A stretch of 64,000 nucleotides of DNA from Acholeplasma sp. (GTDB taxonomy: Bacteria > Bacillota_I > Bacilli_A > Acholeplasmatales > UBA5453). The DNA lies in NCBI GenBank assembly GCA_036677365.1, contig JAVBWN010000030.1, forward strand, positions 1-64,000, in the 5' to 3' direction. The notes beneath the pieces were generated by a model. The model saw only the letters and a list, made by a program, of their open reading frames with translations. It was not told where the DNA came from and ran no database searches. Both the position numbers and the translations under genes were made by a program. Positions 24,097-55,070 of this stretch are shown one piece after another; position 1 is the first letter of the stretch; every line of letters begins with the position of its first letter.

Positions 24097-24107
24097 TGTT
24101 GCACATG

Positions 24108-24183: not shown

Positions 24184-24195
24184 ATTAACTAAGGT

Positions 24196-25903: not shown

Positions 25904-25925
25904 ACGAGAAATCGTTTATTTTTTT
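25900..25925 (+). terminator. Intrinsic terminator
   Basis: ATAAACGA-GAAA-TCGTTTAT plus T-run. Confidence 0.7.
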
Positions 25926-25934
25926 ACTTCGTCA

Positions 25935-25970
25935 CTATGTATAGACAAGTGAAGGGTTGTTTGTTATAAT
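25935..25970 (+). promoter_or_regulatory. Promoter with operator over the -35 element
   Basis: TAGACA(25942)-17 nt-TATAAT(25965), extended TG; operator CTATGTATAGACAAGT at 25935-25950. Confidence 0.7.
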
Positions 25971-25994: not shown

Positions 25995-26921
25995 ATGATC
26001 GAAGTAAAACCATTATCCAATCTAGATGCCCCGATGAAACAAAAATGTTTTGGAGGTGCATGGTATCATAAAGTAATGAGTGTGAACTACCCATTTTATG
26101 GCATCGAAGGCGTGATTACATTGCCAATACCGTTTATCAGAAGATATGCAGATGCCAAGAAGTATAAAGGTATTTTAAACCCCAACTCAAAAAATTTAGA
26201 TGTCTCTTCGATTTACTTGGGGGGACATGCGACAGATGAATCGGATGTTGGATTGGCGTTGTTTCGGGGACAGTTATTCAATGGAATTTCTGCTGGGGCA
26301 TGTGTTTATCGACCATTTTGGCGATACATCACAGATCAATTCGAAGATATTGGTGGGTATGATTTGGATCAACAACGCTTTTACGCTGCGACGATGTTAT
26401 CCAATCACGAAGGCATGAAAAACATATATGCACAATATCACCCATCGTTCACCGAATTTTATTATTTACCTGGGGATACCATAAAAATGTCACTTACTAG
26501 TCCAAAACCACATTTCATGCAATTAACAATTGAAGTGATGGAAGTATCTACCTTACCTTATTCTGTTCAAATGAGAAAAAGAAATCGATGGAAGGCACCA
26601 AAAACGTTTATTTCACCCCTATTCGCTTCCAAAGGTCATGGAACAGATATGCCAAAAACATACAAAAGAGTCAACGCAATTGATCAAGTAAAGAATGAAG
26701 GCAAACAGGCGACTATGACGAATTCAGAAATATTAAATGCTCAATGGAAATCCTGTTTCTTGTACTACAAGGAAAATGGGACCCTTTTTAAAACACCTTT
26801 AAATGATGATATAGCTGTCACGATGCAATGCCCGGATGATAAAGCATTCTTTATTACCCCTATTGACAATGTCACTGGGGGACAAATGATTTCTATTTGT
26901 CCAAAAGAGGTGTTAAGATGA
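25995..26921 (+). CDS. Uncharacterised conserved-domain protein, paralogue 1 (no signal peptide)
   Basis: GAGGT RBS; shares many motifs with 47391 and 53303. Confidence 0.85.
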   Translation: MIEVKPLSNLDAPMKQKCFGGAWYHKVMSVNYPFYGIEGVITLPIPFIRRYADAKKYKGILNPNSKNLDVSSIYLGGHATDESDVGLALFRGQLFNGISAGACVYRPFWRYITDQFEDIGGYDLDQQRFYAATMLSNHEGMKNIYAQYHPSFTEFYYLPGDTIKMSLTSPKPHFMQLTIEVMEVSTLPYSVQMRKRNRWKAPKTFISPLFASKGHGTDMPKTYKRVNAIDQVKNEGKQATMTNSEILNAQWKSCFLYYKENGTLFKTPLNDDIAVTMQCPDDKAFFITPIDNVTGGQMISICPKEVLR

Positions 26922-28744
26922 AAAAAACATGGATAATTATTCTTGGCTTCTTGTACTTTATAGCAGTCCCCATTCATGCGGCAGGTTTAAACTATACTGA
27001 GATTTCAAATACAGAAACCAGGCTATCAGGGGTTCAAGTCCAGTCTATTTCAGCCAATGTATATAACGATGCTGGGACAGAGTCGATTCAAAATATTCAA
27101 GTGATTGGTGGTAGTGATGACGTATTATTGACCACATGGAGCTACTTTGATGGCGCAGGTAATTTGGTTAATAAGGATGTGCTCAGCCTAGCGCGAGATT
27201 TTAATCAAAAAAATCCCAACTATGAAGTCATCGCTGGGGTTAATGGTGATTATTTCACCACAGGATCAACCATCAATGCTAATATGATTTTTGGTTCTAA
27301 ATTGATCAAGTCAAACAATCATGATAAATATTTCGCCATTGAACTCGACCCTAAAGGCAGTTTTAATTCGACCATTAAAACGATTGCATTAAGCGATACA
27401 TACAAACTATACATTTATCATCAAGAAAATGACGCATTGATGGCTGTAGTCAAATTGGAAAATATCAATGATTCAACCATTGAAGTTGGACAAACAGGTG
27501 TTTTTTACAATTATGATGCATTGTCAAAAGCAAGCGGTACACACTTTAGTTATGATTTAGTAATGAAAACCAATACAAACAATCAATTCTTTTTTCTTGG
27601 AACAAATCCAATGGCGAAAGAAGGTGTGATTGAAACAACCAATACAAAAATATCAATTTTGTCTCGTGATGAACATATACAATCATTATTGAATGAAGGC
27701 TATGTCAAAATCCAAAAAGAAGTAAAAAATGTGAACGAAGGTAACACATTGTTAGGTGTGGATTCGCAAATCATTCAAAATAATGCCATAAAAGCTTTTT
27801 CGGAGATTGGTGGACAAAGTGCTTCTAATAACGAATCAAGACATCCGAGAACAGGTATTGGGTTTGATGAACAAAATCGACCTATTTTAATTACGGTAGA
27901 TGGCAGACAAACAGGCTTTTCACAAGGGGTCAATCTTCGTGAGTTTGCAAAAATCATGCAAGTTCATGGGATTGTAAATGGTTTTAACTTAGATGGTGGG
28001 GGTTCTACACAAGCCATCATCAAAGAAGGCGACGATTTCAGAATGCTTAATCGTCCCTCCGAAGGTGGACCAACAACGTATAGAAGTGTTTCAAATGCGG
28101 TTTTTTTTATCAAACCTAAAGCCAAAGCGGATATCGTCACAACCATCAATCAAAATATACTGACGTTAGCACTACCATCGTTGAATTATGATGTGTTCAT
28201 ACAGGGTGTTAAACAGGCGTTAAATTCAAGTACGCTTGTTGTTCAAATCGATCCAAATAAAGATCAAGCCATCAGTATTGTCGACCTTACACACCAGATG
28301 GCGGTTTTCAATCAAGTAATTTGGATTAATTATGTAAAACCAATTACGCAACCAATTTTTACTGAAATCACACACGAAATCAGTTCAAATAACGTCAGTA
28401 TTCTCATTTATTTTGAAGATCCGGATCGCTTGATTGATCGGATGTATGTGATTCATCAGGAGTCTGATATCCAAAAGGTTGCACTCGTTCAATATGCGGG
28501 ATTGAGAAAAGCTGTATTTGACCAGTTAAATGAAGGAGATAATCACTATACCATTCACTATGAGTTGAAGGATGGTACCAAAGAAACCATCGAATATCAT
28601 TTTCTACATAACATTGAAACACCGACTGAAGAACCCAATGAATCATCATTCCCTTGGGTTCTCAGCATATCGATTGCAATACCGAGTCTCTTATTAATGA
28701 CAGGAGCAGTTTGGCTTTTTGCCACAAAGCGGAAATCAATATGA
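26918..28744 (+). CDS. Secreted, C-terminally membrane-anchored phosphodiester glycosidase (NAGPA/DUF2233 family)
   Basis: Signal peptide MKKTWIIILGF..IHA, NGDYF, RHPRTGIG, ITVDGRQ, NLDGGGST, RSVSNAV, C-terminal TM plus KRK; ATGA overlap. Confidence 0.85.
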   Translation: MKKTWIIILGFLYFIAVPIHAAGLNYTEISNTETRLSGVQVQSISANVYNDAGTESIQNIQVIGGSDDVLLTTWSYFDGAGNLVNKDVLSLARDFNQKNPNYEVIAGVNGDYFTTGSTINANMIFGSKLIKSNNHDKYFAIELDPKGSFNSTIKTIALSDTYKLYIYHQENDALMAVVKLENINDSTIEVGQTGVFYNYDALSKASGTHFSYDLVMKTNTNNQFFFLGTNPMAKEGVIETTNTKISILSRDEHIQSLLNEGYVKIQKEVKNVNEGNTLLGVDSQIIQNNAIKAFSEIGGQSASNNESRHPRTGIGFDEQNRPILITVDGRQTGFSQGVNLREFAKIMQVHGIVNGFNLDGGGSTQAIIKEGDDFRMLNRPSEGGPTTYRSVSNAVFFIKPKAKADIVTTINQNILTLALPSLNYDVFIQGVKQALNSSTLVVQIDPNKDQAISIVDLTHQMAVFNQVIWINYVKPITQPIFTEITHEISSNNVSILIYFEDPDRLIDRMYVIHQESDIQKVALVQYAGLRKAVFDQLNEGDNHYTIHYELKDGTKETIEYHFLHNIETPTEEPNESSFPWVLSISIAIPSLLLMTGAVWLFATKRKSI

Positions 28745-30441
28745 AAAAATTACTCAGTGAACTAGATATCAAGCATTCAATCAAATCATTTATACCCTCA
28801 AATCAAACATATATAGATAATGATACCTTATACTATAAGAGTATTCCGAGCGCTCTTTTTTGTTTAAAACATGTAGAACTCACAGGACGAACCATTCCAG
28901 ATGATGGGTTTAAAACCAAAGGAACTATGGTGGATTTATCACGCAACGCAGTTTTTAAAGTTGACTATTTTAAACAGGTACTATATAAAAAAGCGTTGCT
29001 CGGGTTTAATGTGGTTTGGCTATATATGGAAGATGTTTATACGCTAGAAGATTACCCAAAGTTTGGTTATTTACGCGGTAGATATACTTTGAATCAACTT
29101 AAAGAACTGGATGACTATGCCAATTACTTAGGGATTGAATTGGTACCGTGCATTCAAACATTAGGACACATGGGGCAATTTTTGAGGTGGCCATCTTCAG
29201 CCCCGTTTAGAGACCAATCTGATGTATTGATGATGCGTGAAAGCATACCACTCATCCATGCAATGATCTCTTTTTGTAAAAAAGCTTTTAGAACAACCCA
29301 AATCCACGTTGGTATGGATGAGACATTCGGATTTAGTTTTGGGCAACATTACAAAAAATATGGGTATGAAGATCCAGAATCATTATTCATTGAACATCTA
29401 AATACGGTTAATAATATTTGCCTAAACGTGGGTTATAAAGATGTACTCATTTGGTCAGATATGTTTTTTAGACATCGATCTCAAACCAATTACTACTATG
29501 ATACTGAAATCACATTTGATCAAGCATTCATACAAAAAATACCTAATAATGTCGGCTTAGTTTACTGGGATTACTATAACCATAAGCCAGATATTTATGA
29601 TAAGATGCTACAAAAACACCTTCAGATGAATCGACGGGTTGTCATGGCTAGTGGTGTATGGATTTGGACAAAATTGGCTTATGACCATGAACAAACCAAA
29701 CGAACCGCTGCATTAGCCATTGATGCAACAAAAGAATTAGGCATCAAAGAAATCATCTTTACACAATGGCAAGATGATGGTGCTTATGTGGATTATGAGA
29801 CCAGTTTTCATGGTTTATTTGACGTCACACAATGGGCATGTGAACATAAGGTGAGTGAGGATTATCTACTTTATTTAACCCACAATAGCCTCAATAATCA
29901 TTTAAGTATTAGTCAAGTCAATCGTTTGGGTTTTGATCCAGTAAGATTGCTTTGGGATGACTTATGTTTAGGGATATATCTCAATGACTTGGTCGGATAC
30001 GACTCAAGCAAGTTGGCAACATATATTCGAAAAACTAAACACCATATCAAAAACATGAGACAAATCGGTGCGTACCATCATCGTTTGATTGCTGAGGTTC
30101 TATGTGTTAAATTAGAAATTCGAGTATCCATTTTAGAAGGATACTTTACAACGTATGACTTTAGTCATACAATGGTACTGTTGAAACGATTTAAGCGATT
30201 AATGTCATCATTAGTCAACTCGTTTGATGAGATGTGGCATAATAGGTATACACCCTTTGGTCTAGAAGTACTACAAACTAGGCTGTTTGCTCAAATCAAG
30301 CGTGCAGAAGAGTTGGCTTATTGGATCCATGCATACAGCAACAAAGAAATCGACAGGATTCCTTTTTTAGAAGAAACACTGTCCAAGGAACCCTATATCG
30401 GGGTTAAGCATTTAGAATTGGCATTTAGCTCGAAACAATGA
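28741..30441 (+). CDS. GH20-like beta-N-acetylhexosaminidase (GcnA type), cytoplasmic
   Basis: MVDLSRNAV, LYMEDVY, FGYLRGRY, IQTLGH, HVGMDET catalytic DE, YWDYY; start at ATGA overlap. Confidence 0.85.
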   Translation: MKKLLSELDIKHSIKSFIPSNQTYIDNDTLYYKSIPSALFCLKHVELTGRTIPDDGFKTKGTMVDLSRNAVFKVDYFKQVLYKKALLGFNVVWLYMEDVYTLEDYPKFGYLRGRYTLNQLKELDDYANYLGIELVPCIQTLGHMGQFLRWPSSAPFRDQSDVLMMRESIPLIHAMISFCKKAFRTTQIHVGMDETFGFSFGQHYKKYGYEDPESLFIEHLNTVNNICLNVGYKDVLIWSDMFFRHRSQTNYYYDTEITFDQAFIQKIPNNVGLVYWDYYNHKPDIYDKMLQKHLQMNRRVVMASGVWIWTKLAYDHEQTKRTAALAIDATKELGIKEIIFTQWQDDGAYVDYETSFHGLFDVTQWACEHKVSEDYLLYLTHNSLNNHLSISQVNRLGFDPVRLLWDDLCLGIYLNDLVGYDSSKLATYIRKTKHHIKNMRQIGAYHHRLIAEVLCVKLEIRVSILEGYFTTYDFSHTMVLLKRFKRLMSSLVNSFDEMWHNRYTPFGLEVLQTRLFAQIKRAEELAYWIHAYSNKEIDRIPFLEETLSKEPYIGVKHLELAFSSKQ

Positions 30442-30466
30442 AGGGGCTTTGTCCCCTTTTATTTTT
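30441..30466 (+). terminator. Intrinsic terminator
   Basis: AAGGGG-CTTTGT-CCCCTT plus T-rich tail. Confidence 0.7.
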
Positions 30467-30495
30467 GCAGGAATGTTTAAAACGCTTTCAAAAAC

Positions 30496-30548
30496 ACTTG
30501 ACTATACATTTGAAGATGATTATAATGGGTGTAGATGTATATACAATT
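30496..30548 (+). promoter_or_regulatory. Promoter with two operators
   Basis: TTGACT(30498)-17 nt-TATAAT(30521); ACTTGACTATACATTT (30496-30511) and AGATGTATATACAATT (30533-30548). Confidence 0.75.
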
Positions 30549-30569
30549 AAAACGGAGGAAAAGAATCGA

Positions 30570-32846: not shown

Positions 32847-32868
32847 TACAAAACAAAATAAAACTTTT

Positions 32869-32900
32869 GAACAAGCAACTTTGAGTTGCTTGTTCTTGTG
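32869..32900 (+). terminator. Strong stem-loop (terminator or mRNA stabiliser)
   Basis: GAACAAGCAACT-TTG-AGTTGCTTGTTC 12-bp stem. Confidence 0.65.
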
Positions 32901-32919
32901 TTTTATAGGAGGACCCCCA

Positions 32920-33585
32920 ATGTCTTTTTTTGAACGGTATGTAAATTCAAAATTTTATATGTATACCGATATTTTCTTCAAAATCTTACTGCTAAATTTC
33001 TATATGATCCTGACAATAATCATCGGGTTTTTCATCTTTGGATTACCACTGGCCATCTCTTCAGGAGCAATCACTTTAAGCATGGTTTTGAAGAAAACAT
33101 CGACGGAAGTGACGAATACCTATTTCACATTGTTAAAAAAAACATACATTAAAGTCATCATAAAAGGCCTTATTTACCAGTTAATCCTTATGGTTTTGGG
33201 ATTCAATGCTGTGTTTTTCTATACAGGACTTGAGCCATTCAGTTATTACTATTTCATAGGTTTTTTGATTAGTATATGGTTATTAGCATTTACAATGATT
33301 GCATTCTATCATGGGATGATATTATCTCTGATTTATAGAGTGCATTGGTTTTCAATCCTTAAGCACAGTTATATATTGACATTTGGATTTGGATTAAGAA
33401 GTATGTTCATGATGATGATTGGCCTTGTTTATGTTTTGATTGTCATTTGGATTCCAATTATAAGTCTACTACTTGGCTTAAGTGGCACCTTGTTGCTGGC
33501 CACATGGATACTGGACAAACCATATCAAACAATCGATAATTTGAAGACAGATTTATTAGAATGTATAGAGACTTACTTACAGTAA
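32920..33585 (+). CDS. YesL/DUF624-like membrane protein
   Basis: AGGAGG RBS, about 5 TM segments, LN.Y..L...GFFIFG(L)P pattern; usual sugar-ABC neighbour. Confidence 0.65.
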   Translation: MSFFERYVNSKFYMYTDIFFKILLLNFYMILTIIIGFFIFGLPLAISSGAITLSMVLKKTSTEVTNTYFTLLKKTYIKVIIKGLIYQLILMVLGFNAVFFYTGLEPFSYYYFIGFLISIWLLAFTMIAFYHGMILSLIYRVHWFSILKHSYILTFGFGLRSMFMMMIGLVYVLIVIWIPIISLLLGLSGTLLLATWILDKPYQTIDNLKTDLLECIETYLQ

Positions 33586-33598
33586 GGTATGAATACTT

Positions 33599-33652
33599 AC
33601 TTGACTAGTCAAGTTTAAAATGCTATACTATTTTTGAATTGACTATACAACC
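33599..33652 (+). promoter_or_regulatory. Promoter of the ~21 kb operon with two operators
   Basis: TTGACT(33601)-17 nt-TATACT(33624), extended TG; perfect palindrome ACTTGACTAGTCAAGT (33599-33614) and AATTGACTATACAACC (33637-33652). Confidence 0.8.
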
Positions 33653-33670
33653 TATAATTTGAGGTAAAAC

Positions 33671-36544
33671 ATGAAAAAAATCGTTACACTATTGCTGCTC
33701 ATTACAATACCTATGGGGCTACTTTTAACCCAACCGAAACAGGTAAGCGCTTCACATACGAGCTATGAGCAATCCATTTTTAATCTTCAAGAAGTCACAT
33801 CATCAGTCACTTATGGCACTTACAAAGAAAATCATCCAAAAGTTTATCCAAATCAATCCATTCAAGTCGATTTGGATGTTTTTACATACACTGGAGGACT
33901 TGTTGAAGAAGAAGCCCCATATCTCTCATATTTTATGGACGATTTAGGTGAAAGTAATTTAGGTATTTATATTCCTGAATCTGGTGATATTACTTTTTAT
34001 GTGAATGTTCCGACCACAGGATATTATCAAATGGGCGTAAAGTATTTCTCCATTCAAGGTCGTAGCTCAACCATTCAAAAAGGCATAAAAATTAATGGTG
34101 AATACCCATTTATTGAAGCCGAAAGTATCTCTTTACTTCGTTTTTTTAAGGATGCTTACCCAGTATCACAAGACCGTGAGCCTGGAAAATCTGATGTTCG
34201 TCCTAAACAAATTGAAACGCATCTTTGGACTGAAGACACATTTAAAGACCGTGTTGGTTATTACAATGAAGCCTATTATTTCCATTTTCAGCAAGGCAAC
34301 AATACAATCACTCTAACCAGTAAACGTGAACCAGTTGTTATCGGTGGAATGAAATTATTCCAAGCCCCACAATTAAAATCATATGATGAGTATTATTTGA
34401 ATCTTAGTCAACAAGGGGTAATCGTTCAAGATAATCATTACACAATTGAAGCTGAGGAGGCCAATTTAAAGAGTTCACCATCATTAAATCCAATTGCTGA
34501 ATATTCAACCATGAAATTCAGTCCATATGAATCCTTTATCACTCGATATAATGCAATTGGTGGAAACAACTGGCGAATTGCTGGCGATGAAATCACTTGG
34601 CGAGTCCAAGTCAATCAAAGTGGTTTTTATAAAATTACGTTTAAAGCAATGCAAAACTTCTCGAATGGACAAAGTTCGACAAGAACGTTAAAAATCAATG
34701 GGGAAGTCCCCTTCAAAGAAGCACTACAACTAGAATTTAAATACAATTCTAATCTCCAATACGTGACTTTAGGTAATCAAAAGTCTCCGATGTATGTCTA
34801 CCTAGTAGCAGGTCAAAATGAGATCACCCTTCAAGCAAATATTGGCACATATGGTGATATTGTGCAACGCGTCAATGTATTGATTCAATCATTCAGAACT
34901 TTTTATCGTGAAGTTGTCATGCGTACTGGATTGAATCCGGATCCATATCAAGACTATTTATTGAATCGTTATATCCATAACTTTAATCAAAGACTGGTCC
35001 ATTTTGAAGATGAACTCAAAGCCATTAAATCAGAAATCATTCAAATCTCTGGTGGTCGAAGTTCTTTGATATCACCATTTGATCGAACCTTAAATCAAGT
35101 TAAAAAGTTTATGTCTGATGAGAAGAATGTGCAAAATGGTTTAAGAGAGTTTGAACAAAACATTTCTGCGCTGGGTGCTTGGGTTATTTCAATATCTGAA
35201 CAACCCTTAACACTAGATCAAATAATCATATCTGGGGATTCATATAAATTACCTAATATTAAAGTCAATGTTTTTGAAAAAATTTGGCACGAAATTACGT
35301 TGTTCTTTGGGTCATTTATGGACGATTCTGATTTAGGTTCGGGTGTTTCTGTCGATGGGCCAACGATTGAAGTATGGATTGGTACAGGACGAGATCAAAC
35401 CACATTATTGAGACAATTGATTGATGAATCATTTACTACCCAAGAGGGTATCAATGTAAAACTAAAGATGGTCAACATGGGTGTGCTATTACAAGCAACA
35501 CTTTCGGGCAATGGCCCAGATGTTGCTATTGGGGTTGATCAAAAGATGCCAGTCAACTGGGGCATTCGAAACGCCATCGTAGATTTAACGACGTTTAATG
35601 ACTTTGAAGAAGTTAAAAATCGTTTTAGTCCATCGGCTTTAGAAGCACTATCGTTTAATGGTCGTACCTATGCTTTACCCGATACCGAAGATTTCCTCGT
35701 GATGTTTTATCGAAAAGATATTTTAGAAAACATTGGTGTGAATCAAATCCCACAAACTTGGGATGAAGTCATCGATATATCACCCATTTTACAAAAACGT
35801 TATTTAGAGTTTTATGTTCCGGTATCACAAGGATCCTTATCAACCGTTTTGTATGCTATGATGCGTCAAAATGGTGGACAACTATACATCAACGGTGGCG
35901 AAGCCTCGGGGATGTTACAAAAACAAAACATCGATGCATTCCTTAGGTTCACGAGACTATTTTCCGATTATGGCTTTGCTTTAGAAGCGAATTTCGCCAA
36001 CCGGTTCAGAAGTGGCGAAATGCCAATCGGAATTGCGAATTACTCATTATACAATACACTCAGTGTGTTTGCACCAGAAATTGCTGGTCAATGGGATTAT
36101 GCATTGATACCTGGTGTTTATCGTGAGGGTGTTTTACACCAAGAAACCACATCAACAGTATCCTCAACGGTCATTATGAGTGCATCCAAACAAAAAGAAG
36201 CTTCATGGACATTTATGAAATGGTGGCTAAGTAAAGATACACAAGTGGATTATGCTCGGGGTATGGAAGCAATTATCGGTTCGGCTGCGCGATATCCGAC
36301 AGCTAATCTAGAGGCATTTGAGCAATTGCCATGGCCTATTAAAGACTATCTAATGTTAAAACTTCAACGTGAGAAAGCCGTAGGCATCCCTACAGTGCCT
36401 GGGGATTACATTGTTGGTCGCCACATTGATAATGCTTTTAGAGCAGTACTTAACAGCAATGTCTCACCTCAAGATGCACTATACCACTATCATTTAAAAA
36501 TTAATGAAGAAATCACTAGAAAGCGTAATGAATTAGGGCTATGA
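33671..36544 (+). CDS. Large extracellular solute-binding protein with N-terminal CBM-like beta-sandwich modules
   Basis: Signal peptide; IEAE/GDEITW.V.V..SG.Y..INGEVPF repeats; C-terminal SBP family 1 motifs (GPDVA, YALP, MFYRKDIL, PQTWDE, SWTFMKWW). Confidence 0.85.
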   Translation: MKKIVTLLLLITIPMGLLLTQPKQVSASHTSYEQSIFNLQEVTSSVTYGTYKENHPKVYPNQSIQVDLDVFTYTGGLVEEEAPYLSYFMDDLGESNLGIYIPESGDITFYVNVPTTGYYQMGVKYFSIQGRSSTIQKGIKINGEYPFIEAESISLLRFFKDAYPVSQDREPGKSDVRPKQIETHLWTEDTFKDRVGYYNEAYYFHFQQGNNTITLTSKREPVVIGGMKLFQAPQLKSYDEYYLNLSQQGVIVQDNHYTIEAEEANLKSSPSLNPIAEYSTMKFSPYESFITRYNAIGGNNWRIAGDEITWRVQVNQSGFYKITFKAMQNFSNGQSSTRTLKINGEVPFKEALQLEFKYNSNLQYVTLGNQKSPMYVYLVAGQNEITLQANIGTYGDIVQRVNVLIQSFRTFYREVVMRTGLNPDPYQDYLLNRYIHNFNQRLVHFEDELKAIKSEIIQISGGRSSLISPFDRTLNQVKKFMSDEKNVQNGLREFEQNISALGAWVISISEQPLTLDQIIISGDSYKLPNIKVNVFEKIWHEITLFFGSFMDDSDLGSGVSVDGPTIEVWIGTGRDQTTLLRQLIDESFTTQEGINVKLKMVNMGVLLQATLSGNGPDVAIGVDQKMPVNWGIRNAIVDLTTFNDFEEVKNRFSPSALEALSFNGRTYALPDTEDFLVMFYRKDILENIGVNQIPQTWDEVIDISPILQKRYLEFYVPVSQGSLSTVLYAMMRQNGGQLYINGGEASGMLQKQNIDAFLRFTRLFSDYGFALEANFANRFRSGEMPIGIANYSLYNTLSVFAPEIAGQWDYALIPGVYREGVLHQETTSTVSSTVIMSASKQKEASWTFMKWWLSKDTQVDYARGMEAIIGSAARYPTANLEAFEQLPWPIKDYLMLKLQREKAVGIPTVPGDYIVGRHIDNAFRAVLNSNVSPQDALYHYHLKINEEITRKRNELGL

Positions 36545-37461: not shown

Positions 37462-37462
37462 G

Positions 37463-38380: not shown

Positions 38381-38389
38381 GTGAAACCA

Positions 38390-39826: not shown

Positions 39827-39829
39827 TCT

Positions 39830-40516: not shown

Positions 40517-40524
40517 GAGGGTCT

Positions 40525-45234: not shown

Positions 45235-45260
45235 TTTAAGATAAGAAAGGGAGAACAAAC

Positions 45261-46745: not shown

Positions 46746-46752
46746 TAAAAGA

Positions 46753-46781
46753 AAGCGTCAAAGTAAGTCGCTTTGACGCTT
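46753..46781 (+). terminator. Internal stem-loop after the SBP gene
   Basis: AAGCGTCAAAG-TAAGTCG-CTTTGACGCTT 11-bp stem with weak U-tail. Confidence 0.6.
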
Positions 46782-46809
46782 ATCTTTGTGTTTAAACAGT
46801 GAGGACAAA

Positions 46810-47394
46810 ATGAAAAAAGTCGTTTTTATGGGTGACTCGATCACCGCAGGATTCAAACAACTCAATGCATTTCCAAATATTAAGAACATGGGTGTTGGCG
46901 GATACAAATCAACAGAACTCATTCCACTCGTAAAAGAACTCCGGCTTGAACAACCTGAGGTATTGTTTCTCATGATTGGAATCAATGATTTCTTGTGTAA
47001 TAAACGTTTTTGGCCACATGGATACACCATACCATTTGAAAAAACGTACGACACATTATTAGATCTTATTACAACCAATTTACCGAGAACAAAAATCTAC
47101 TTATCCTCTATCCTACCGATGCGTGGTAGAAGTGAAGGTCTCTTAGTAGAAAGAAATGTCAAAGTTTTTAATCAAGAAATCGACGTCATTAACCAGTTCA
47201 TACATCAAAAATCAAAAGCCTATAAATGCCATTTTTTAAACTTAAATGCTGTATTTAAACAGGATGGTTTATTAAATGAAACTTATACCATCGATGGTAT
47301 TCACTTATCCGAGATTGGCTATGAAGTCTATCTGAGCTGTTTGAAAAACATTGAACCCGAACTATTTAAAGACAAAGGTAAGGAGTTAATATGA
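46810..47394 (+). CDS. SGNH/GDSL hydrolase (putative O-acetylesterase)
   Basis: GDSIT, MGVGG, IGIND, DGIH blocks; GAGG RBS. Confidence 0.88.
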   Translation: MKKVVFMGDSITAGFKQLNAFPNIKNMGVGGYKSTELIPLVKELRLEQPEVLFLMIGINDFLCNKRFWPHGYTIPFEKTYDTLLDLITTNLPRTKIYLSSILPMRGRSEGLLVERNVKVFNQEIDVINQFIHQKSKAYKCHFLNLNAVFKQDGLLNETYTIDGIHLSEIGYEVYLSCLKNIEPELFKDKGKELI

Positions 47395-48767
47395 AAAAAA
47401 CATTATCTATTTTCATGATCATCGTATTAATGATGGGCATCGTTGGGTGTCAAAATCAACCAAACATTGATCCTACACCCACACCAGATCCTGATGAAGA
47501 AAAACTATTAAACGACAAAATCGCACCGATACTTTCATTTTTGGATGCATCCAAACGAAATGTATCTGTCCCTCAGAATGGAGAATTCAATATTTTCGAA
47601 GGGTTACGTGCCATCGATAACCTTGAAGGCGATATTTCAAGCAAAATTGAAGTAGATGCTGTTGGATTTGATATCACAACGCCAGGGACTTATGAAGTCA
47701 TTTTCTTTGTCACAGATCGTGCTGGGAATGCATCGAATTTTTTATCCAAATTCATTACCGTAACCCCGGTTTATGAGATACTTGCTAGGTATCCAATTTA
47801 TACAGAAGTCATCATGAATGAAGCCTCAGCACCCACACCACCTTCATGTTTTCAGGGGGCATATTATCATAAAGTATTTTCCTCAAAAGATTACTGGACG
47901 GGTATTGAGGCAGAGGTTACTCTACCAATGCCAGACATTAATCGTTATGATGCAGCCTATAATGATTCGTTAGATATTGACCCAAATGCTAGAAATTTGG
48001 ACAATCCATCGTTATATATGGGTGGTCATGCAATGACTGAATCCGATGTGGGTTTATCTTTAAAAACCGCACTTTTCAAAAATAATTCTGGTGTTTCTGC
48101 CATCTCTGTAGGTTCATACGCATTCCGTCCATTTTGGCGTTACATTACCACACATAGTTATGATGCTGGGTCATACGATCGACCAAATGGTCGCTTCTAT
48201 AGCGTATCTTGCACCGGCAGTGGAACCACAAAGAACTGTATCGCAAACTGGGATTTTCAAGATACGCAGTATTATTACCTACCTGGTGATAAAGTGAGAA
48301 TGATTATCTATTCACCAAAGCCAAACTGGTTACAACTTCAAATTGAATTAATAGAAGCGTCTACACTGCCGTATTCAGTGGGTGTTAGAACATTCAATGG
48401 TTGGAAACAACCAGAATCCTTCATATCCCCAATTTTTCCTAGTTCTGGACACGGCGATATGAAAGCTGAGTTCAAGCGTGTGAACGCAATAGATCAAGTT
48501 GCCAATGAGGGGAAGCCTGCGCATGCATCCACAACTGTAGTACGTGAGGCCATTTGGCATAATACCTATTTGTACCGTAAAATAAATGGTGTAAACCATC
48601 GCGTGCCGATGAATATGTCACGCGCAGCTGTGATGAATTGCCCATTACCTACCCAATTTGTAAGTTCTGGGATAGATGCATTGACTGGTGGGGAAACCGT
48701 AAGTATTTATGCTGCCGGGGCACCCACAATGGCGTTGCCAATCGATCCATATAAAAGAAAAGATTAA
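47391..48767 (+). CDS. Lipoprotein: Ig-like (DUF5011-like) domain plus uncharacterised domain, paralogue 2
   Basis: Lipobox IVGC, PTPTPDP linker, AIDNLEGDIS..PGTYEV..VTDRAGN Ig-like module, then shared motifs with 25995 and 53303. Confidence 0.85.
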   Translation: MKKTLSIFMIIVLMMGIVGCQNQPNIDPTPTPDPDEEKLLNDKIAPILSFLDASKRNVSVPQNGEFNIFEGLRAIDNLEGDISSKIEVDAVGFDITTPGTYEVIFFVTDRAGNASNFLSKFITVTPVYEILARYPIYTEVIMNEASAPTPPSCFQGAYYHKVFSSKDYWTGIEAEVTLPMPDINRYDAAYNDSLDIDPNARNLDNPSLYMGGHAMTESDVGLSLKTALFKNNSGVSAISVGSYAFRPFWRYITTHSYDAGSYDRPNGRFYSVSCTGSGTTKNCIANWDFQDTQYYYLPGDKVRMIIYSPKPNWLQLQIELIEASTLPYSVGVRTFNGWKQPESFISPIFPSSGHGDMKAEFKRVNAIDQVANEGKPAHASTTVVREAIWHNTYLYRKINGVNHRVPMNMSRAAVMNCPLPTQFVSSGIDALTGGETVSIYAAGAPTMALPIDPYKRKD

Positions 48768-48778
48768 CAGAGGTCTAT

Positions 48779-50293
48779 ATGAAAAAAATAGCAGTTCTAC
48801 CTTTAGATGAAAGACCATGCAATTATCGATTTAATCAATTGCTTATTCAAGGCACACCTTATGAAGTTATTTCTCCAGACATTTCAATACTCGGCAACAA
48901 AAAGCAAAAAGGCCATTTGGACAAGATAGCAAATTGGCTTCTTCAAATCGCAAGCACTGTCGATGGCATCGTTTGTGCTGTAGATACACTTGTTTATGGC
49001 GGTATTGTGCCATCGAGATTGCACCATGATGACACAGAAACATTGCTAAATAGATTACATGTACTGAGAAACATTAAAAACCGATACCCCAAATTGAAGT
49101 TATTTGCTTATAACTTGATCATGCGAAATCCGAAATATTCAAGTTCAGAAGAGGAACCTGATTATTATGAGCAATGGGGGCGAGAAATCCACTTATATGG
49201 TGTATATGAGCACAAACAATCCTTACAACAATTGTCACCAGCTGATCAAACACATTTCGAACACATCAAATCAACGATAGATAAAGCAGCGCTCAATGAT
49301 TACCTTATACGTCGTCAACAAAACATTGAAGTCAACTTGGCATTCCTAGAAATGATTAAGGATGGCACGATTGATTTTGGAATCGTTCCTCAAGACGATT
49401 CAAGTCCGTATGGGCTTACCGCGATTGATCAAAAAATCATCCGTAGACGCATCAAAGAACTCAACATTGAACTCAAATGTTACATGTACCCTGGTGCAGA
49501 TGAGGTAACCAATGTTTTATTGGTTAGAATGGTCAATTTTTATCAAAACATCAAACCAAAGTTTTACATTCATTATGCTTCAATTACTGGTGGACAACAA
49601 ATCCCACTCTATGAAGATCGACTACTTCATGAAACAGTCAAGTATCAAATCTTAGCGGCTGGCGGATGCATTGTATCTTCCATGAATGAAGCCGATTTAA
49701 TGTTAATGATCAATGTTCCATCAGGAAACATGAAAGAAGCATCAAACCAACATGAAGCCAGTTTAGAGTATGATGCTTTTAGAAACTTGATAGAATACGT
49801 TGAACTCGCAAACTATGGCATTGAAATGGGGAAAAACGTCATTATTGCCGATGTGGCCTATGCCAACGGTGGGGATTTGAACTTACTCAAATTGTTACGA
49901 CAAAAAGGCATCTTATACAAGGTATCTGCTTATGCTGGATGGAATACTTCATCCAACACGTTGGGTACATGTATCCCACAAGGGGTTTTGGATTTTATTT
50001 TCCCCAACAGGTCAAACAACCTTGATTTTTTAGCACTTAGATATGTGGAAGATTTTGGGTATTGCTCTATTGTAAGGAAATCCATCGCTGACCATTTAGT
50101 TTTGCCAAACCATTATTTCTTGTTGGATGGCAAACGTGGTCAAGTCGTAAACCAAATTCGTGAAGCTTTGCAAACATTTATCAATCAAGAACTCAACACA
50201 GAGGGTGTGTTTATCGTCTTAGATGATGTCTACTCACCATGGAATCGAATGTTTGAAACGGGGCTTGAAGTACATGTCGATCAAAATCAGTGA
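48779..50293 (+). CDS. DUF4127 family protein
   Basis: LPLDERPCN, YGGIVPSR, IMR.P..SSEEEPDYY, QDDS, YPGADE, DVAYANG, YAGWNTSSNTLG. Confidence 0.85.
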   Translation: MKKIAVLPLDERPCNYRFNQLLIQGTPYEVISPDISILGNKKQKGHLDKIANWLLQIASTVDGIVCAVDTLVYGGIVPSRLHHDDTETLLNRLHVLRNIKNRYPKLKLFAYNLIMRNPKYSSSEEEPDYYEQWGREIHLYGVYEHKQSLQQLSPADQTHFEHIKSTIDKAALNDYLIRRQQNIEVNLAFLEMIKDGTIDFGIVPQDDSSPYGLTAIDQKIIRRRIKELNIELKCYMYPGADEVTNVLLVRMVNFYQNIKPKFYIHYASITGGQQIPLYEDRLLHETVKYQILAAGGCIVSSMNEADLMLMINVPSGNMKEASNQHEASLEYDAFRNLIEYVELANYGIEMGKNVIIADVAYANGGDLNLLKLLRQKGILYKVSAYAGWNTSSNTLGTCIPQGVLDFIFPNRSNNLDFLALRYVEDFGYCSIVRKSIADHLVLPNHYFLLDGKRGQVVNQIREALQTFINQELNTEGVFIVLDDVYSPWNRMFETGLEVHVDQNQ

Positions 50294-51020
50294 TCATCTA
50301 TTCGATGGGGTACCGTGTACCATCTATCAAAAAGAAGATTCAAAAACCAAACCTTTGATTTATTTTTTCCACGGATTCACAGGCAATAAAGATGCCAATA
50401 TCATGGGACGCGGGGAAGTACTCGCTGAACTTGGGTTTTGTGTCGTTGCCATCGATGCGTACTTACATGGACAACGCATGAGTATTCTTGAACGTCACCG
50501 TTCGAATATTGATAAATATCAAGACATCATTGAAATTGTTATACACACGGCACAGGATGCAAAACGTTTATTTGACAAGTACTTCAAGTACATGCCGAAT
50601 ATTCAGCCAGAAGTATATTATGCTTATGGTGTGTCTATGGGCAGTTTAACAGCATTCTATTTAGCCACGATTGACGAAGCATTAAAAGCAATGGTCGGAC
50701 TTGTATGTACCCCATCTTTTGTCGAATATTATCGTGACAAAGCGTCTTTATATGGCTTCAATACAGGTTTCTTTTATGAAAGAAAGTTAGCTTGGTACCA
50801 ACCCATTGACCCAATGAACCAGTTGGATAAATTAAAACATAAACGGATTTTTATGGGGATTGGCATACACGATGATGTTGTAAATCCAAAATATGCAAAA
50901 AATCTCCACGAACTGCTGCCTGAAACCATCCTGAAATCGTATGAAACCGGTCACGTTTCAACCCCGGAAATGCTTGAAGATAGTTATCGCTTCTTAAAAC
51001 TAGAGGTTTTCCATGATTGA
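50274..51020 (+). CDS. Alpha/beta-fold serine hydrolase (esterase) 1
   Basis: HGF oxyanion, HG.R, GVSMG nucleophile, DDVV, TGH. Confidence 0.85.
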   Translation: MSIKISDHLFDGVPCTIYQKEDSKTKPLIYFFHGFTGNKDANIMGRGEVLAELGFCVVAIDAYLHGQRMSILERHRSNIDKYQDIIEIVIHTAQDAKRLFDKYFKYMPNIQPEVYYAYGVSMGSLTAFYLATIDEALKAMVGLVCTPSFVEYYRDKASLYGFNTGFFYERKLAWYQPIDPMNQLDKLKHKRIFMGIGIHDDVVNPKYAKNLHELLPETILKSYETGHVSTPEMLEDSYRFLKLEVFHD

Positions 51021-51747
51021 GATTGTGGTTAGAAAATTTCACATCGATGGCATACCAATATCGATTTACGAACAAATAGATGGCACCTTGAAACCAGTTA
51101 TCTTCTCATTTCATGGATTTGATGGATACAAAGATGGAGACTATTTCAAACGTGAGGATGAACTTGCCCGTCGTGGATTCATTGTGATTGGTATTGATAC
51201 CATCTTACATGGTGAGAGACGAATCCCTGTTTTTGATTCAAAACCGTATGATGAAAAGATGAAAGACATCCATCATTGTGTTATTCAAACCGCTATGGAT
51301 GCCATTCAATTATATGAAAAATATATTAGATTCATGCCAAGGGTAATGAAAGATGCAGTTTATGCAATAGGGGTATCGATGGGGGGCGCAATCAGTATTT
51401 ACATGGCCACCATTTACCCCCTCATAAAAGCAGTATCTATCGTTGGATCGCCATCAATGATAGAATTTTATCAACTAAAACAAGAAAAGTATCAGTGGTC
51501 AAAAGATTTTTACTACGAAAGAAATTTAGCATATTTAGATAGATTTGACCCGTTTGAGCATGCACACCAGCTAAAATGTCCCTTGTTTCTAACTGCTGGA
51601 ATGATGGATGAAGTGATACCGTGTTCATTGGTATCCAAATTCATTCACCCAAAAGTAACATTTAAGTTATATGATACTGGACACATGCCGAATCAAGCAC
51701 AATTCGATGATGCTTATGCATTCTTATTATCAAAGGAGGACGTGTAA
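51013..51747 (+). CDS. Alpha/beta-fold serine hydrolase (esterase) 2
   Basis: HGF, HGER, GVSMGG, DEVI, TGH; tandem paralogue of 50274. Confidence 0.85.
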   Translation: MIEIVVRKFHIDGIPISIYEQIDGTLKPVIFSFHGFDGYKDGDYFKREDELARRGFIVIGIDTILHGERRIPVFDSKPYDEKMKDIHHCVIQTAMDAIQLYEKYIRFMPRVMKDAVYAIGVSMGGAISIYMATIYPLIKAVSIVGSPSMIEFYQLKQEKYQWSKDFYYERNLAYLDRFDPFEHAHQLKCPLFLTAGMMDEVIPCSLVSKFIHPKVTFKLYDTGHMPNQAQFDDAYAFLLSKEDV

Positions 51748-51750
51748 ATC

Positions 51751-53325
51751 GTGACAAAAAGTTATCAAGCCGTAGTAGTTGGCGGCTCACTTGGTGGCAT
51801 CATGGCTGCCTACGCACTATCAAAACAAGGGATTCACACCGCCCTCATTGAAAAAACCGATTGGATCGGTGGACAATTAACCAGTCAAGGTGTTCCGAGT
51901 GATGAACATGAATATATTGAGTTTACAGGTGCGACAGAAACATATCGTCGCTTTAGAGAGAATATTCGCTCCTATTATCGCAATCATCCAGATATCGTGG
52001 ATACTCTAAAAAATAAAAGGATATTCAATCCTGGAAATGGTTGGGTATCTAAAAATGCTGCGGATCCTCGATTGTCTCTAAAATTACTTAATGATATTCT
52101 TCAACCGTTTGTTGACAATCAAACTTTAGATATTTACCTTGAAACCCCGACTGTAGGTGCATATAAGGTACAAGACGTGATTCAGTATGTCGTGATTCAT
52201 CACAATCACGAAGATATCGTAATAAAAGCAGATTATTTTATTGACGCGACCGATATTGGTGAGTTGTTACCAATGACGGATACAGCATATGTTACAGGTG
52301 CGGAGTCATACGATGAAACACAAGAACCACATGCACCCATGGTTAAAAATTCGGAGGATATGCAACCAATCACATGGATAGCAGCGGTTGGATTCAATCC
52401 GAATAATACATCGATTATTGAAAAACCAGATTTATACGATCAATTCAAGAATTACATTATGCCATTTGGTGAATCTGTACTCAGTTGGTATGCAGCGGGC
52501 CTAGAACAAGGATCAAAACGTGCATTTTCAATGTTCGCAGAAGGTGAATACCAATCCACACCAGCGATGTTCACATATCGACAAGTCATTGAGAAAAATC
52601 ATTTTAAAACCAGTGTTCCTTACTCAGTAACACTAATTAACTGGCCTCAAAATGATTATTTCTTCGGCAATATTTACGATGATCCAAATTCGGACTATCA
52701 CCGTTATGCAGCCAAGCAGTTAACATTGTCACTTATATATTGGCTTCAAACAGAAGCTAGAAGAGATGATGGTGGTTATGGCTATCCAGAAGTCTGTTTA
52801 GTACCTGAAGTCTTAGGTACAAAAGATGGCTTAGCCAAAGCACCTTATATTCGTGAGTCGAGAAGAATTAAAGCATTGTACACCATTAAAGAACAAGTTA
52901 TTAACAAGCGATATGCATTGAAACCACCTCATTTCAGAGATCGTATCGGGATTGGACATTACCATATAGATTTACATATGACAACAAAAACCAAAACCTA
53001 TTTTTTTGATGAGACATATCCATTTCAAATTCCACTCGGAGCGCTAATACCAATCGAGACAAAAAACTTGATCGCAGCTTGTAAAAATATTGGAACGACA
53101 CATGTGACCAATGGTTGTTACAGACTGCATCCTGTAGAGTGGAACATCGGAGAAAGTGCAGGTTATTTGGTGGCCTTCGCCATCAAGCATCAAGTGAGTC
53201 CAAAACAAATCTATCAAGATGATGTATTACTCGAATCGTATCAAGAATTATTAAAACAATCGGGCATTTTGATTGAATGGCCTGTAGAAGTATTGGAGGG
53301 TCATGATGAAAAAAGATCTAAATAA
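51751..53325 (+). CDS. FAD-dependent oxidoreductase (FAD_oxidored family)
   Basis: VVGGSLGG Rossmann, WIGGQLTSQGV, DATD.GEL, PYIRESRR, PFQIPLGALIP, YRLHPVEWNIGE; GTG start. Confidence 0.88.
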   Translation: MTKSYQAVVVGGSLGGIMAAYALSKQGIHTALIEKTDWIGGQLTSQGVPSDEHEYIEFTGATETYRRFRENIRSYYRNHPDIVDTLKNKRIFNPGNGWVSKNAADPRLSLKLLNDILQPFVDNQTLDIYLETPTVGAYKVQDVIQYVVIHHNHEDIVIKADYFIDATDIGELLPMTDTAYVTGAESYDETQEPHAPMVKNSEDMQPITWIAAVGFNPNNTSIIEKPDLYDQFKNYIMPFGESVLSWYAAGLEQGSKRAFSMFAEGEYQSTPAMFTYRQVIEKNHFKTSVPYSVTLINWPQNDYFFGNIYDDPNSDYHRYAAKQLTLSLIYWLQTEARRDDGGYGYPEVCLVPEVLGTKDGLAKAPYIRESRRIKALYTIKEQVINKRYALKPPHFRDRIGIGHYHIDLHMTTKTKTYFFDETYPFQIPLGALIPIETKNLIAACKNIGTTHVTNGCYRLHPVEWNIGESAGYLVAFAIKHQVSPKQIYQDDVLLESYQELLKQSGILIEWPVEVLEGHDEKRSK

Positions 53326-54298
53326 ACGCGTTATTCCAACCTTAGATAGCCATTACGCTACGCTACCATCTTTTGAAAATATAGATGTATTCGAAGGTCA
53401 AATCATGGATGAACTCGGTCCACAAGCGGCACCAAAGTGTTTTTTAGGGGCATGGTATCGAAAAGTATACTCATCAAAAGATGCGTGGTTAGGCATTGAA
53501 GGTACCATACGTTTGGGTGAATTTACGCCAGATAACAATCGATATGGTTCAGATGGTCGGACATTTTGGGATAGATTTTTAGACAACCCATCCATTTATA
53601 TGGGGGGACACGCACAATCTGAATCCGATGCGGGTTTAGGTTGGATGGTGGGCTATGAATCACTCAATACAGATGAACCATTAAACTACGGTTCTAAAAA
53701 AATCTGCTATCGTCCATTTTATCGTTACATCTACTCAGAAGTGATTGATATTGAAGGTAATGTCACCAGAAATAACGTCAATTCTTGGAATGTAAGTGAC
53801 CCTAAACGTTTTGAATATTATTATTTTCCGGGTGATTTGATCAAGATGAGTGTCTATACTCCAGTAGAGAACTACTTACAACTTAGAATTGAAGTACTAG
53901 AACCAACCAGTATTCCCAAATACAAATCACAAAGAGAACAATATAAACTTAAAAACAATTGGCCAACCGTATATTATAGTCCGTTATTTTATAGTGAAGG
54001 TCATGGTGTATTGAATGCTGAATTCAAACGTGTCAATTCTATTGACCAGTACGGTAATGAAGGATCAAATGTTAAAATGACTCAAGCTAAAGTGTCAGAT
54101 GCAATATGGGAATCGGTTTATTTGTATCGGAAGATACAAGGAAAATGGATGAAAGTCCCATTCATTAAACAAAGACAAACAACCATGGTTTGCCCAAACA
54201 ATGAATCATTCACTATAACAACCAATGAGTTATTATCCTCTAAGGGTGGCGAAATCATCCGTATTCACCCCCAACCATTAAGCGAGAAAGAAGTGTAA
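53303..54298 (+). CDS. Uncharacterised conserved-domain protein, paralogue 3 (no signal peptide)
   Basis: Shares motifs with 25995 and 47391; overlaps the FAD gene end and abuts nanE. Confidence 0.85.
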   Translation: MMKKDLNKRVIPTLDSHYATLPSFENIDVFEGQIMDELGPQAAPKCFLGAWYRKVYSSKDAWLGIEGTIRLGEFTPDNNRYGSDGRTFWDRFLDNPSIYMGGHAQSESDAGLGWMVGYESLNTDEPLNYGSKKICYRPFYRYIYSEVIDIEGNVTRNNVNSWNVSDPKRFEYYYFPGDLIKMSVYTPVENYLQLRIEVLEPTSIPKYKSQREQYKLKNNWPTVYYSPLFYSEGHGVLNAEFKRVNSIDQYGNEGSNVKMTQAKVSDAIWESVYLYRKIQGKWMKVPFIKQRQTTMVCPNNESFTITTNELLSSKGGEIIRIHPQPLSEKEV

Positions 54299-55007: not shown

Positions 55008-55070
55008 CGAGGATAGGAAAAATGAATCAAATAATGTATGTTATACTGATATCAAATGGGGTGTAATAAA

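Follow-up and report, generated by a model that had tools for sequence, protein, structure and literature searches.

An unannotated protein family with three paralogues in a glycan locus of Acholeplasma sp., a predicted glutamic-peptidase-like fold and a possible role in glycan cleavage

The window analysed here, a stretch of 64,000 nucleotides of Acholeplasma sp. (assembly GCA_036677365.1, contig JAVBWN010000030.1, positions 1 to 64,000), carries a glycan locus in which three open reading frames (ORFs) encode copies of one domain of about 290 amino acids (aa). These ORFs, 25995-26921 (copy 1), 47391-48767 (copy 2) and 53303-54298 (copy 3), all on the plus strand, are true paralogues, and the family to which they belong is widespread, strongly conserved, usually multi-copy and entirely unannotated. 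Based on a structure model, we place the domain in the beta-sandwich clan of YncM/CPAVM1, the G1 peptidases, neprosin and HC7, where it would constitute a new family by sequence, in which the glutamic-peptidase/YncM fold bears another set of catalytic residues. The explanation that we favour, and to which we give slightly less than an even chance, is that the family is a carboxylate-based glycan-cleaving hydrolase for a polymer containing N-acetylhexosamine (HexNAc) or N-acetylmannosamine (ManNAc) that is probably anionic. An earlier note on this DNA, made from the sequence without database searches, had proposed a new glycoside hydrolase or lyase family; this is still a live hypothesis rather than a finding, and the nearest structures are peptidases and glycopeptidases (Z 14.0-16.3).

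Results

Three copies of one domain

Copy 1 encodes a protein of 308 aa that consists of the family domain only, copy 2 a surface lipoprotein of 458 aa with an Ig-like domain and the family domain, and copy 3 a protein of 331 aa, whose gene lies between those of a PF12831 flavoprotein and NanE. Their similarity far exceeds chance: BLASTP gave E=2e-88 with 46% identity over 301 aa for copies 1 and 2, E=5e-55 with 36% identity over 320 aa for copies 1 and 3, and E=5e-64 with 38% identity over 318 aa for copies 2 and 3. In the alignment of all three, the other two copies are 45% and 40% identical to copy 1 and the mean column identity is 54%. All motifs that the earlier note had listed align collinearly, so that its claim of three collinear paralogues is borne out.

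The copies differ in their localisation signals, as the note had also described. Copy 2 starts with a signal sequence (aa 1-20) with the lipobox IVGC at residue 17, followed by a Pro/Thr-rich linker, an Ig-like domain (PF16403, residues 57-115) and, C-terminal of it, the family domain at about aa 145-440 (47823-48710). A crude script check found neither a hydrophobic N-terminus nor a lipobox in copies 1 and 3, and the reading frame 5' of the start of copy 1 is closed by stops. In a search of the whole genome (1.97 Mb, 37 contigs, 99.9% complete), 16 matches were obtained, three of which cover the domain; these three are the ORFs of the window, and the other 13 match the Ig-like part of the profile only.

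No model in Pfam, NCBIfam or PHROG matches the domain in any of the three copies; in Pfam, copies 1 and 3 have no match and copy 2 matches with its Ig-like part only. When 40 members were compared singly with Pfam at E values up to 10, only scattered chance matches were found, with PF15493 (YrpD) and PF01828 (Peptidase_A4) not among them. PF15493 was not found in the genome of the window either, and searches with PF15493 and PF01828 in the relatives and in 301 genomes of the class gave no match. Profile searches against the sequences of the PDB yielded nothing relevant, a query with a compact member retrieving only chance matches such as OmpW. The domain is thus as unassigned as the note had stated. 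Nothing in print on the family was found in the literature (supplements outside the scope of the search).

Homologues are nevertheless numerous. A large protein collection contains 269 homologue clusters at E <=0.001, and 309 stretches of species-representative genomes encode a relative. Those with a name, from Acholeplasma, Haploplasma, Acholeplasmataceae and metagenome-assembled genomes (MAGs) of Clostridia, are called 'hypothetical' or after the Ig stalk. Exported and cytoplasmic forms coexist in the family, an export signal being present in 97 of 148 members and missing in 51; genomes of the Mollicutes type have several copies, with both forms represented. One search of the representatives included the Ig-like stalk and was dominated by Ig-repeat proteins, and its counts of 7666, 2549 and 375 are therefore uninformative on the domain; a few distant family members were recovered from it. 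A longer search gave 11 matches, eight of them to the Ig stalk only, whereas the other three (P0278-P0280) are distant compact relatives. These three, of 573-589 aa and from high-GC organisms, have an N-terminal extension of about 300 aa and lack the hairpin extension; two of them carry PF08532, a trimerisation-type domain of GH42 beta-galactosidases.

One further homologue, P0242, which came from the search of the representatives, is a protein of 997 aa with a C-terminal Por/type IX secretion system sorting domain, in which the family domain (about 186-435) is fused N-terminally to the catalytic half of a phosphodiester glycosidase of the NAGPA type (468-579; E 2e-14 to the NAGPA encoded in the window). 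An arrangement with the family domain nested inside NAGPA was considered and dropped, since BLASTP supports the N-terminal fusion only and nesting is at most possible; a short NGGLF-type stretch upstream in the same protein may hint at it.

Predicted fold and structural neighbours

From 50 homologues, AlphaFold2 produced a very confident model of copy 1, with a predicted local distance difference test (pLDDT) score of 95.8 and a predicted template modelling (pTM) score of 0.92; it is an all-beta sandwich apart from a single short helix. The model was used for an exhaustive search of structures, with which a re-check of the top Foldseek chains agrees. The closest matches were YncM (4HFS; Z 16.6-16.7, root-mean-square deviation (rmsd) 2.9, 192 of 203 residues) and CPAVM1 (8XAI; Z 16.3), which superimpose with rmsd values of 2.5-2.9 over 184-192 residues and thus over essentially the entire domain. 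They were followed by neprosin (7ZVC; Z 14.4-14.7, 208-212 residues), scytalidoglutamic peptidase (SGP; Z 14.0-14.4, the whole enzyme being matched by residues 19-302 of the model), HC7 (8PMU, 8PN3 and 8PN5; Z 14.1-14.3, 205-207 residues) and BACCAC_02064, a 'putative two-domain sugar hydrolase' (Z 13.6-13.8). The G1 structures 2IFR, 2IFW and 1S2B scored Z 14.0-14.4 with rmsd values of 3.1-3.3 over 183-191 residues, and each of the top matches from YncM to BACCAC_02064 aligns 183-212 residues. Scores drop below this group: the heavy chain of aspergilloglutamic peptidase (AGP) reached Z 11.0, GH16 lichenases at most 10.5, a lectin-like protein 10.0 and lyases of the families PL7/14/18 at most 9.1; GH11/12, like GH16 and PL7, score below the peptidase group. 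In a protein-language-model Atlas, clusters of G1 peptidases lie near copy 1 (0.95, 202 shared features), together with a cluster bearing YrpD. The model thus places the domain in the clan of YncM/CPAVM1, G1, neprosin and HC7 (Z 13.8-16.7), and the likeness to a YrpD-like/concanavalin beta-sandwich that the note had suggested agrees with it.

Conserved residues and comparison with G1 peptidases

Conservation was scored in the 148 members, using the numbering of copy 1. Eleven positions are identical in all of them (R50, S72, Y74, G76, D84, G86, R106, F108, R110, G160 and E235); D161 (one Glu), D230, Q231 and Y156 are kept in 147, Y24, K224, R225 and R194 in 146, N227 in 145 and E82 in 142. The invariant set is retained in the compact relatives, at 26-33% identity. 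Part of the motif list of the note therefore has to be corrected: the His of GGHA (H78, 56/148), the His of GHG (H215, 113/148) and the Cys of MxCP (C279, 76/148) are not family-invariant, whereas CFxGA(W/Y)Y, S-I-Y-x-G-G, ESDxG, RPF(W/Y)R, PGD and KRVNAIDQxxNEG are. Along beta4, beta5 and beta6, polar invariant positions take turns with hydrophobic ones of the core, so that S72, Y74, G76, E82, D84, G86, R106, F108 and R110 would all point to the same side of three strands that follow one another. No acids other than D84 and E235 are identical in all members, and these two are, for this reason, the first candidates for catalysis.

Two cysteines of copy 1, Cys18 (26046-26048) and Cys279 (26829-26831), covary almost perfectly in the family: both are present in 76 of 148 members, neither in 71 and a single one in 1. 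Members without export signal have the pair more often (43/51) than exported ones do (33/97). The two residues are probably in contact, and may form a disulfide, belong to a metal site or act as a redox switch.

For comparison with the G1 peptidases, metagenomic genes were fetched by a short degenerate motif. This gave 57 motif ORFs of >=150 aa, of which 20 were chosen; all 20 were recognised as PF01828, and 16 were aligned. As a control, the profile of this alignment was compared with the PDB, where it retrieves SGP and AGP and misses neprosin, HC7 and YncM, so that the families of the clan, the new one included, are mutually invisible by sequence. An hhalign comparison of 40 family members with G1 had a probability of 23% over 64 columns and paired F108 with W67, R110 with E69 and PGD with aGD; a greedier run was collinear across the whole domain (15%, 174 columns). 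The comparison of compact members (6 sequences only) with the 16 G1 sequences, at a probability of 7.7%, paired G76 with G41, E82 with I51, D84 with Q53, G86 with G55 and F108 with W67. Its register of D84 on Q53 is the one that had been derived beforehand from the beta5-beta6 hairpin of the model. According to these low-confidence alignments, the position of the catalytic Gln53 of G1 is an Asp (D84) in 148 of 148 members. Glu136 of G1 falls on position 222 (beta11) in one and on position 250 (beta12; A249-x-W251 against A-E-W) in another low-confidence alignment, and both positions are variable. At this level of confidence, the family would keep the G1 scaffold with an invariant Asp at the Gln site, and would have lost the canonical general-base Glu.

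The locus in the window

The locus begins with nagB, nagA and a gene for a ROK sugar kinase on the minus strand (22150-25080), divergent from the operon, and continues on the plus strand from gntR through the second GH20C gene (25193-56897). The plus-strand order is GntR, copy 1, NAGPA, a GH20C-like gene and an aBig/Ig protein of 802 aa; then DUF624, a solute-binding protein (SBP) of 957 aa and two permeases; then an NHL/TPR protein, Yip1, DUF5696, two further permeases and a lipoprotein SBP; then a GDSL esterase, copy 2, DUF4127 and two alpha/beta hydrolases; and finally the PF12831 flavoprotein, copy 3, NanE and GH20C. As the note had pointed out, copy 1 stands directly ahead of NAGPA and the GH20C-like gene, and copy 3 directly ahead of nanE.

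The regulator gene (25193-25903) encodes a GntR/HutC-family protein with GntR and UTRA domains. A hairpin with a T-run lies 3' of it at 25895-25924, ahead of the near-palindrome CACTATGTATAGACAAGTG (25933-25951) and of TGTTATAAT (25962-25970), which were read from the sequence of the plus strand (25933-25970). This arrangement looks like a terminator followed by a candidate operator of the GntR/HutC type overlapping the promoter of copy 1, with TGTTATAAT as candidate -10 box.

The stop of copy 1 overlaps the start of the NAGPA gene (PF09992; 26897-28744, plus strand). Its product has a signal peptide, a DGGGS motif at residue 366, described as a sugar-phosphate motif in PMC13474241, and a C-terminal membrane anchor. 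Because of the signal peptide and the anchor, we take NAGPA to be a surface enzyme that is co-located with copy 2. Further plus-strand genes encode a GH20/GH20C-like hexosaminidase (28654-30441), a cytoplasmic DUF4127 protein (PF13552; 48779-50293, 504 aa), a FAD-dependent oxidoreductase-like protein of PF12831 (51751-53325) directly upstream of copy 3, the ManNAc-6-phosphate 2-epimerase NanE (54301-54975) and, at the end of the locus, a second hexosaminidase of the GH20C type (55056-56897). DUF4127, the esterases, the flavoprotein, NanE and the second GH20C are without signals, like copies 1 and 3.

The importers of the locus are SBPs and permeases of the sugar type, and neither a NanA-like aldolase nor a peptide transporter (Opp/Dpp-like) is encoded among the genes of the window. 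Sialic acid was considered as the source of ManNAc and rejected on account of the absent aldolase; the ManNAc-6-phosphate would thus have another origin. A gene for an M3 oligoendopeptidase lies just upstream of the locus. In the SBP of 957 aa (33671-36544), an unusual length, the SBP_bac_1/8 domain is confined to the C-terminal third and a weak CBM35-like match is found at 293-389, which suggests a glycan-capturing extension on a receptor of the ATP-binding cassette (ABC) type. DUF5696 is a protein of 833 aa with an N-terminal hydrophobic segment. The model of DUF4127 (pLDDT 92.6) contains several alpha/beta domains that are flavodoxin- or SGNH-like; 35 columns are invariant in 17 homologues, and DUF4127 also occurs in the Thermus and Deinococcus genomes used as controls. 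The Atlas gave no result for DUF4127, which is probably an enzymatic family and merits separate study. The literature search found no publication on DUF4127 or DUF5696, no occurrence of 'N-acetylmannosaminidase' and nothing useful on PF12831 or on the substrates of bacterial NAGPA.

Genomic context in other organisms

From the 309 stretches, 77 loci were kept and their ORFs compared with the proteins of the window. Genes of the window locus are shared by 25 of them (DUF4127 in 15, the flavoprotein and GntR in 12 each, NAGPA in 11, NanE and ROK in 10 each), which come from Acholeplasmataceae, Paracholeplasma, Haloplasmataceae, Izemoplasmatales, Liberiplasma, MAGs of Bacilli and one MAG of Bacteroidales. 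Two blocks recur: GntR, copy 1, NAGPA, GH20C and aBig (five loci), and SBP, GDSL, copy 2 and DUF4127, followed further on by the flavoprotein, copy 3 and NanE. The segment 38381-46745 of the window (NHL/TPR, Yip1, DUF5696, two permeases and the lipoprotein SBP) is kept in the same order in four loci (L021, L072, L073 and L083) and inverted in another (L060); it looks like a conserved module for uptake and depolymerisation.

Co-occurrence in the class is given as raw counts, in which related genomes are not independent. Of the 300 genomes that were scored in a sample of the class, 19 have the family; they belong to 15 of 179 genera, and most of them give two to five matches. DUF4127 is present in 36 of 301 genomes, 18 of them without the family, and in 18 of the 19 family-positive ones; the remaining family-positive genome (310 contigs, 91% complete) has a partial match to the family. 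DUF4127 is the most consistent genomic partner of the family. In six further genomes, NAGPA and family genes are no more than a few kb apart. In five of five MAGs of Clostridia with a lone family gene, a match to DUF4127 is found elsewhere in the genome; these proteins are longer, about 20-22% identical and mostly stand-alone, one being encoded beside a ROK kinase, and they lend weak support to the partnership.

A gene for a xylose-isomerase-like TIM barrel (PF01261) lies directly downstream of the exported family gene in two of eight loci with a lone copy (L022 and L056), and a third locus, L024, which was outside the Pfam scan, has the same ORF layout. In loci of this type, the gene upstream encodes an unannotated protein of about 517 aa or, in one locus, an AlgX-type SGNH protein.

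Discussion

The conservation pattern, the paralogue sets of exported and cytoplasmic members and the positions within operons favour an enzyme, and the sugar-type importers, the cytoplasmic copies within the amino-sugar operon and the fusion to NAGPA favour a glycan as its substrate. According to the explanation that we prefer, a beta-sandwich of the glutamic-peptidase/YncM clan would have been re-tooled, with D84 taking the position of the G1 Gln (Glu188 of neprosin) and the general-base Glu being lost, and with a family-specific set of residues (E82, D84, D161, D230, E235, R50, R106, R110, K224, R225, S72, Y74, N227 and Q231) lying on one face of a sheet. The target would be a linkage in a polymer of N-acetylhexosamine (N-acetylglucosamine (GlcNAc) or ManNAc), probably anionic or phosphodiester-bearing, such as a cell-wall or capsule glycan of bacteria. 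The lipoprotein copy 2 would act on it at the cell surface next to the anchored NAGPA, the oligosaccharides would be taken up via the sugar-type ABC importers, and copies 1 and 3, in the cytoplasm, would break this linkage in the imported material too. The products may then feed GH20C, DUF4127, the flavoprotein, the ROK kinase, NanE, NagA and NagB.

A more far-reaching version, which we consider possible but doubtful, is that these proteins are the first representatives of a new family, of glycoside hydrolases or of glycosyl-phosphate-cleaving enzymes, that arose from a glutamic-peptidase scaffold by replacement of the Gln/Glu dyad with an Asp/Glu set, and that handles a linkage cut by no known CAZy family. 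One candidate would be the beta-ManNAc linkage in capsules or in the linkage units of teichoic acid, which should withstand substrate-assisted enzymes of the GH20 type; another would be polymers with HexNAc-1-phosphate repeats, which would be degraded jointly with NAGPA. Such an activity would explain the presence of NanE without NanA, the partnership with DUF4127 and the occurrence of copies outside and inside the cell.

Several observations weigh against a glycan-cleaving hydrolase. All functionally characterised structural neighbours with Z >13 are peptidases or glycopeptidases, with no glycosidase among them, and the clustering of the invariant residues in a cleft is deduced from strand alternation rather than observed. 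DUF4127 has no clear relative among solved structures and its fold gives no functional clue, the best match having a Z of 9.2 (generic SGNH/flavodoxin-like) and a Foldseek template modelling score of about 0.2. NAGPA is common in the class, occurring in 120 of 301 genomes and in 18 of the 19 that have the family, and its co-presence is therefore weak and non-specific evidence. The link to carbohydrate genes that the note had drawn is strong in genomes of the Mollicutes/Bacilli type only: in 52 of the 77 loci, mostly from MAGs of gut Clostridia, Eubacteriales and Oscillospiraceae, a lone exported gene resembling copy 2 has no homologue of the non-transporter genes of the window nearby. Homologues of this kind, with no link to carbohydrate genes, are part of what the note had named as speaking against its proposal. 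In eight of these lone-copy loci, no adjacent glycoside hydrolase was found among the 51 of 127 ORFs listed that were compared with Pfam, and the neighbours are variable housekeeping genes.

By contrast, the neighbours in structure and the solitary secreted copies of Clostridia speak for a peptidase or glycopeptidase. The main alternative is a peptide or amide hydrolase of the glutamic-peptidase type, either an HC7-like glycopeptidase or an amidase that strips peptide from amino-sugar conjugates. D84 would activate water together with E235 or D230, glycoproteins or cell-wall glycopeptides would be broken up by the exported copy, and their degradation would be completed by the cytoplasmic ones. 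The best structural matches of known function (CPAVM1, neprosin, SGP and HC7) are all peptidases, hhalign recovers G1 scaffold motifs with an acid at the Gln53 position as in neprosin, a secreted protease would match the non-glycan surroundings in which solitary exported copies occur in gut Clostridia, and the M3 oligoendopeptidase gene adjoins the locus upstream. However, the canonical general-base Glu appears not to be conserved, given that low-confidence alignments put it on the variable position 222 or 250; the importers are of the sugar type, with no Opp/Dpp-like system; two cytoplasmic copies lie within an amino-sugar operon; and in P0242 the family domain is fused to a glycosidase domain. 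The M3 peptidase is not among the genes that recur elsewhere, a weak argument as it was outside the compared query set. On balance, we regard this alternative as unlikely, but as one to be taken seriously.

It is improbable that the domain is a non-catalytic glycan-binding module of the lectin type or similar to a carbohydrate-binding module (CBM), with the surface copy serving NAGPA and the importers and the cytoplasmic copies being subunits of enzymes such as the flavoprotein. The concanavalin-like fold, with lectin-like proteins and galectins at Z 7.6-10, the fusion to a catalytic NAGPA domain in the fashion of a CBM and the tight adjacency to the flavoprotein gene in at least ten loci are consistent with such a role, as is the apparent loss of the catalytic Glu of the peptidase relatives; in one possible register, N227 and Q231 would occupy both Glu positions of G1. 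But eleven positions that are invariant in 148 of 148 members, acids D84 and E235 included, and are kept down to 26% identity are uncommon among binding modules, lectins would hardly account for two cytoplasmic copies that stand free in a catabolic operon, and in many genomes a copy has been kept on its own, without a partner gene in its neighbourhood. A polysaccharide lyase, in which Arg/Lys would neutralise the carboxylate of a uronic-acid or other anionic polymer (e.g. teichuronic acid or capsule containing N-acetylmannosaminuronic acid (ManNAcA)) and a Tyr would serve as acid or base in beta-elimination, is the least probable of the alternatives, since the strongly conserved R50, R106, R110, K224, R225, Y24, Y74 and Q231, the jelly-roll lyases PL7, PL14 and PL18 at Z 8-9.1 and the TIM-barrel gene downstream in two of eight Clostridia loci are set against structural scores well below the peptidase group, the lack of a conserved His (H78 in 56/148, H215 in 113/148), the absence of genes for unsaturated uronate catabolism from the locus and NanE, which indicates ManNAc-6-phosphate and not uronates.

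If the preferred explanation of glycan cleavage on a peptidase scaffold is correct, the family would add a catalytic solution to the few proteins that bridge peptidases and glycanases. As a glycan enzyme, it would also help to give access, in Mollicutes and gut Firmicutes, to an amino-sugar pathway that involves DUF4127, the PF12831 flavoprotein, DUF5696 and NAGPA. A glycopeptidase would be a new enzyme of the kind used as tools, and wall-less bacteria would then scavenge glycoconjugates in an unexpected way.

Comparison with known systems

Among the carbohydrate-active families, GH16 shares the broad concanavalin-like sandwich with the new family, which has an E-x-D pair on one strand (E82 and D84). 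The catalytic strand of GH16 carries ExDx(x)E; its third acid is missing in the new family (E82-S-D84-V-G86), as position 86 is Gly in 148 of 148 members. The catalytic set of PL7 is Arg/Gln/His/Tyr, of which Arg, Gln and Tyr, but no His, are invariant in the new family, at a fold similarity of Z <=9.1.

YncM (4HFS) and CPAVM1 (8XAI) of Bacillus subtilis have the same fold and are the nearest structural matches. A relation at the level of sequence was not found, and the new family has about 100 residues more, because of the hairpin extension, an insertion at 114-160 and the helix at 188-197. It also differs by its cytoplasmic members and its occurrence in glycan loci. CPAVM1 is a secreted protease according to PMC13291215, and the literature on the two proteins deals with signal peptides and an antiviral protease.

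The G1 eqolisins (SGP and AGP; PF01828) have the same two-sheet beta-sandwich, and their scaffold motifs are collinear with those of the family (W23 with W, SIYxGG with WVGIDG, D84-x-G86 with Q53-x-G55, F108 with W67 and PGD with aGD), at hhalign probabilities of 8-23%. In G1, catalysis depends on Gln53 and Glu136, and G41, D43, G44, G55, W67 and E69 are conserved, as stated in PMC6154417. The new family, which PF01828 does not match, would have, according to the low-confidence alignments, an Asp at the site of the catalytic Gln and no conservation at the Glu136 position. Whereas the G1 enzymes are secreted acid endopeptidases, the new family has cytoplasmic copies in a sugar operon.

Neprosin uses a dyad of Glu188 and Glu297 bridged by a water molecule, with Glu188 in the place of the G1 Gln, according to PMC9343461. 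It thus has an acid at the position at which the new family would carry D84, a correspondence transferred through the low-confidence G1 alignment. A counterpart of Glu297 was not identified in the new family, which also lacks the pro-domain and matches of the neprosin Pfam domains and stands in a different context.

PMC13003899 describes HC7, from Bacillus cereus, as a di-glutamate mucinase. Compared here by fold only, this secreted mucinase with a CBM is unlike the new family in its architecture, but it has the same fold and is a glycan-recognising enzyme of the clan, which binds peptides with N-acetylgalactosamine (GalNAc) and whose structure was solved with glycopeptides. Di-glutamate mucinases are characterised by a pair of catalytic Glu residues and by cleavage beside Ser/Thr that carries O-GalNAc. 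The title of the work on HC7 by Narimatsu et al. in 2024 reportedly describes an enzyme that links hydrolases of glycans with peptidases.

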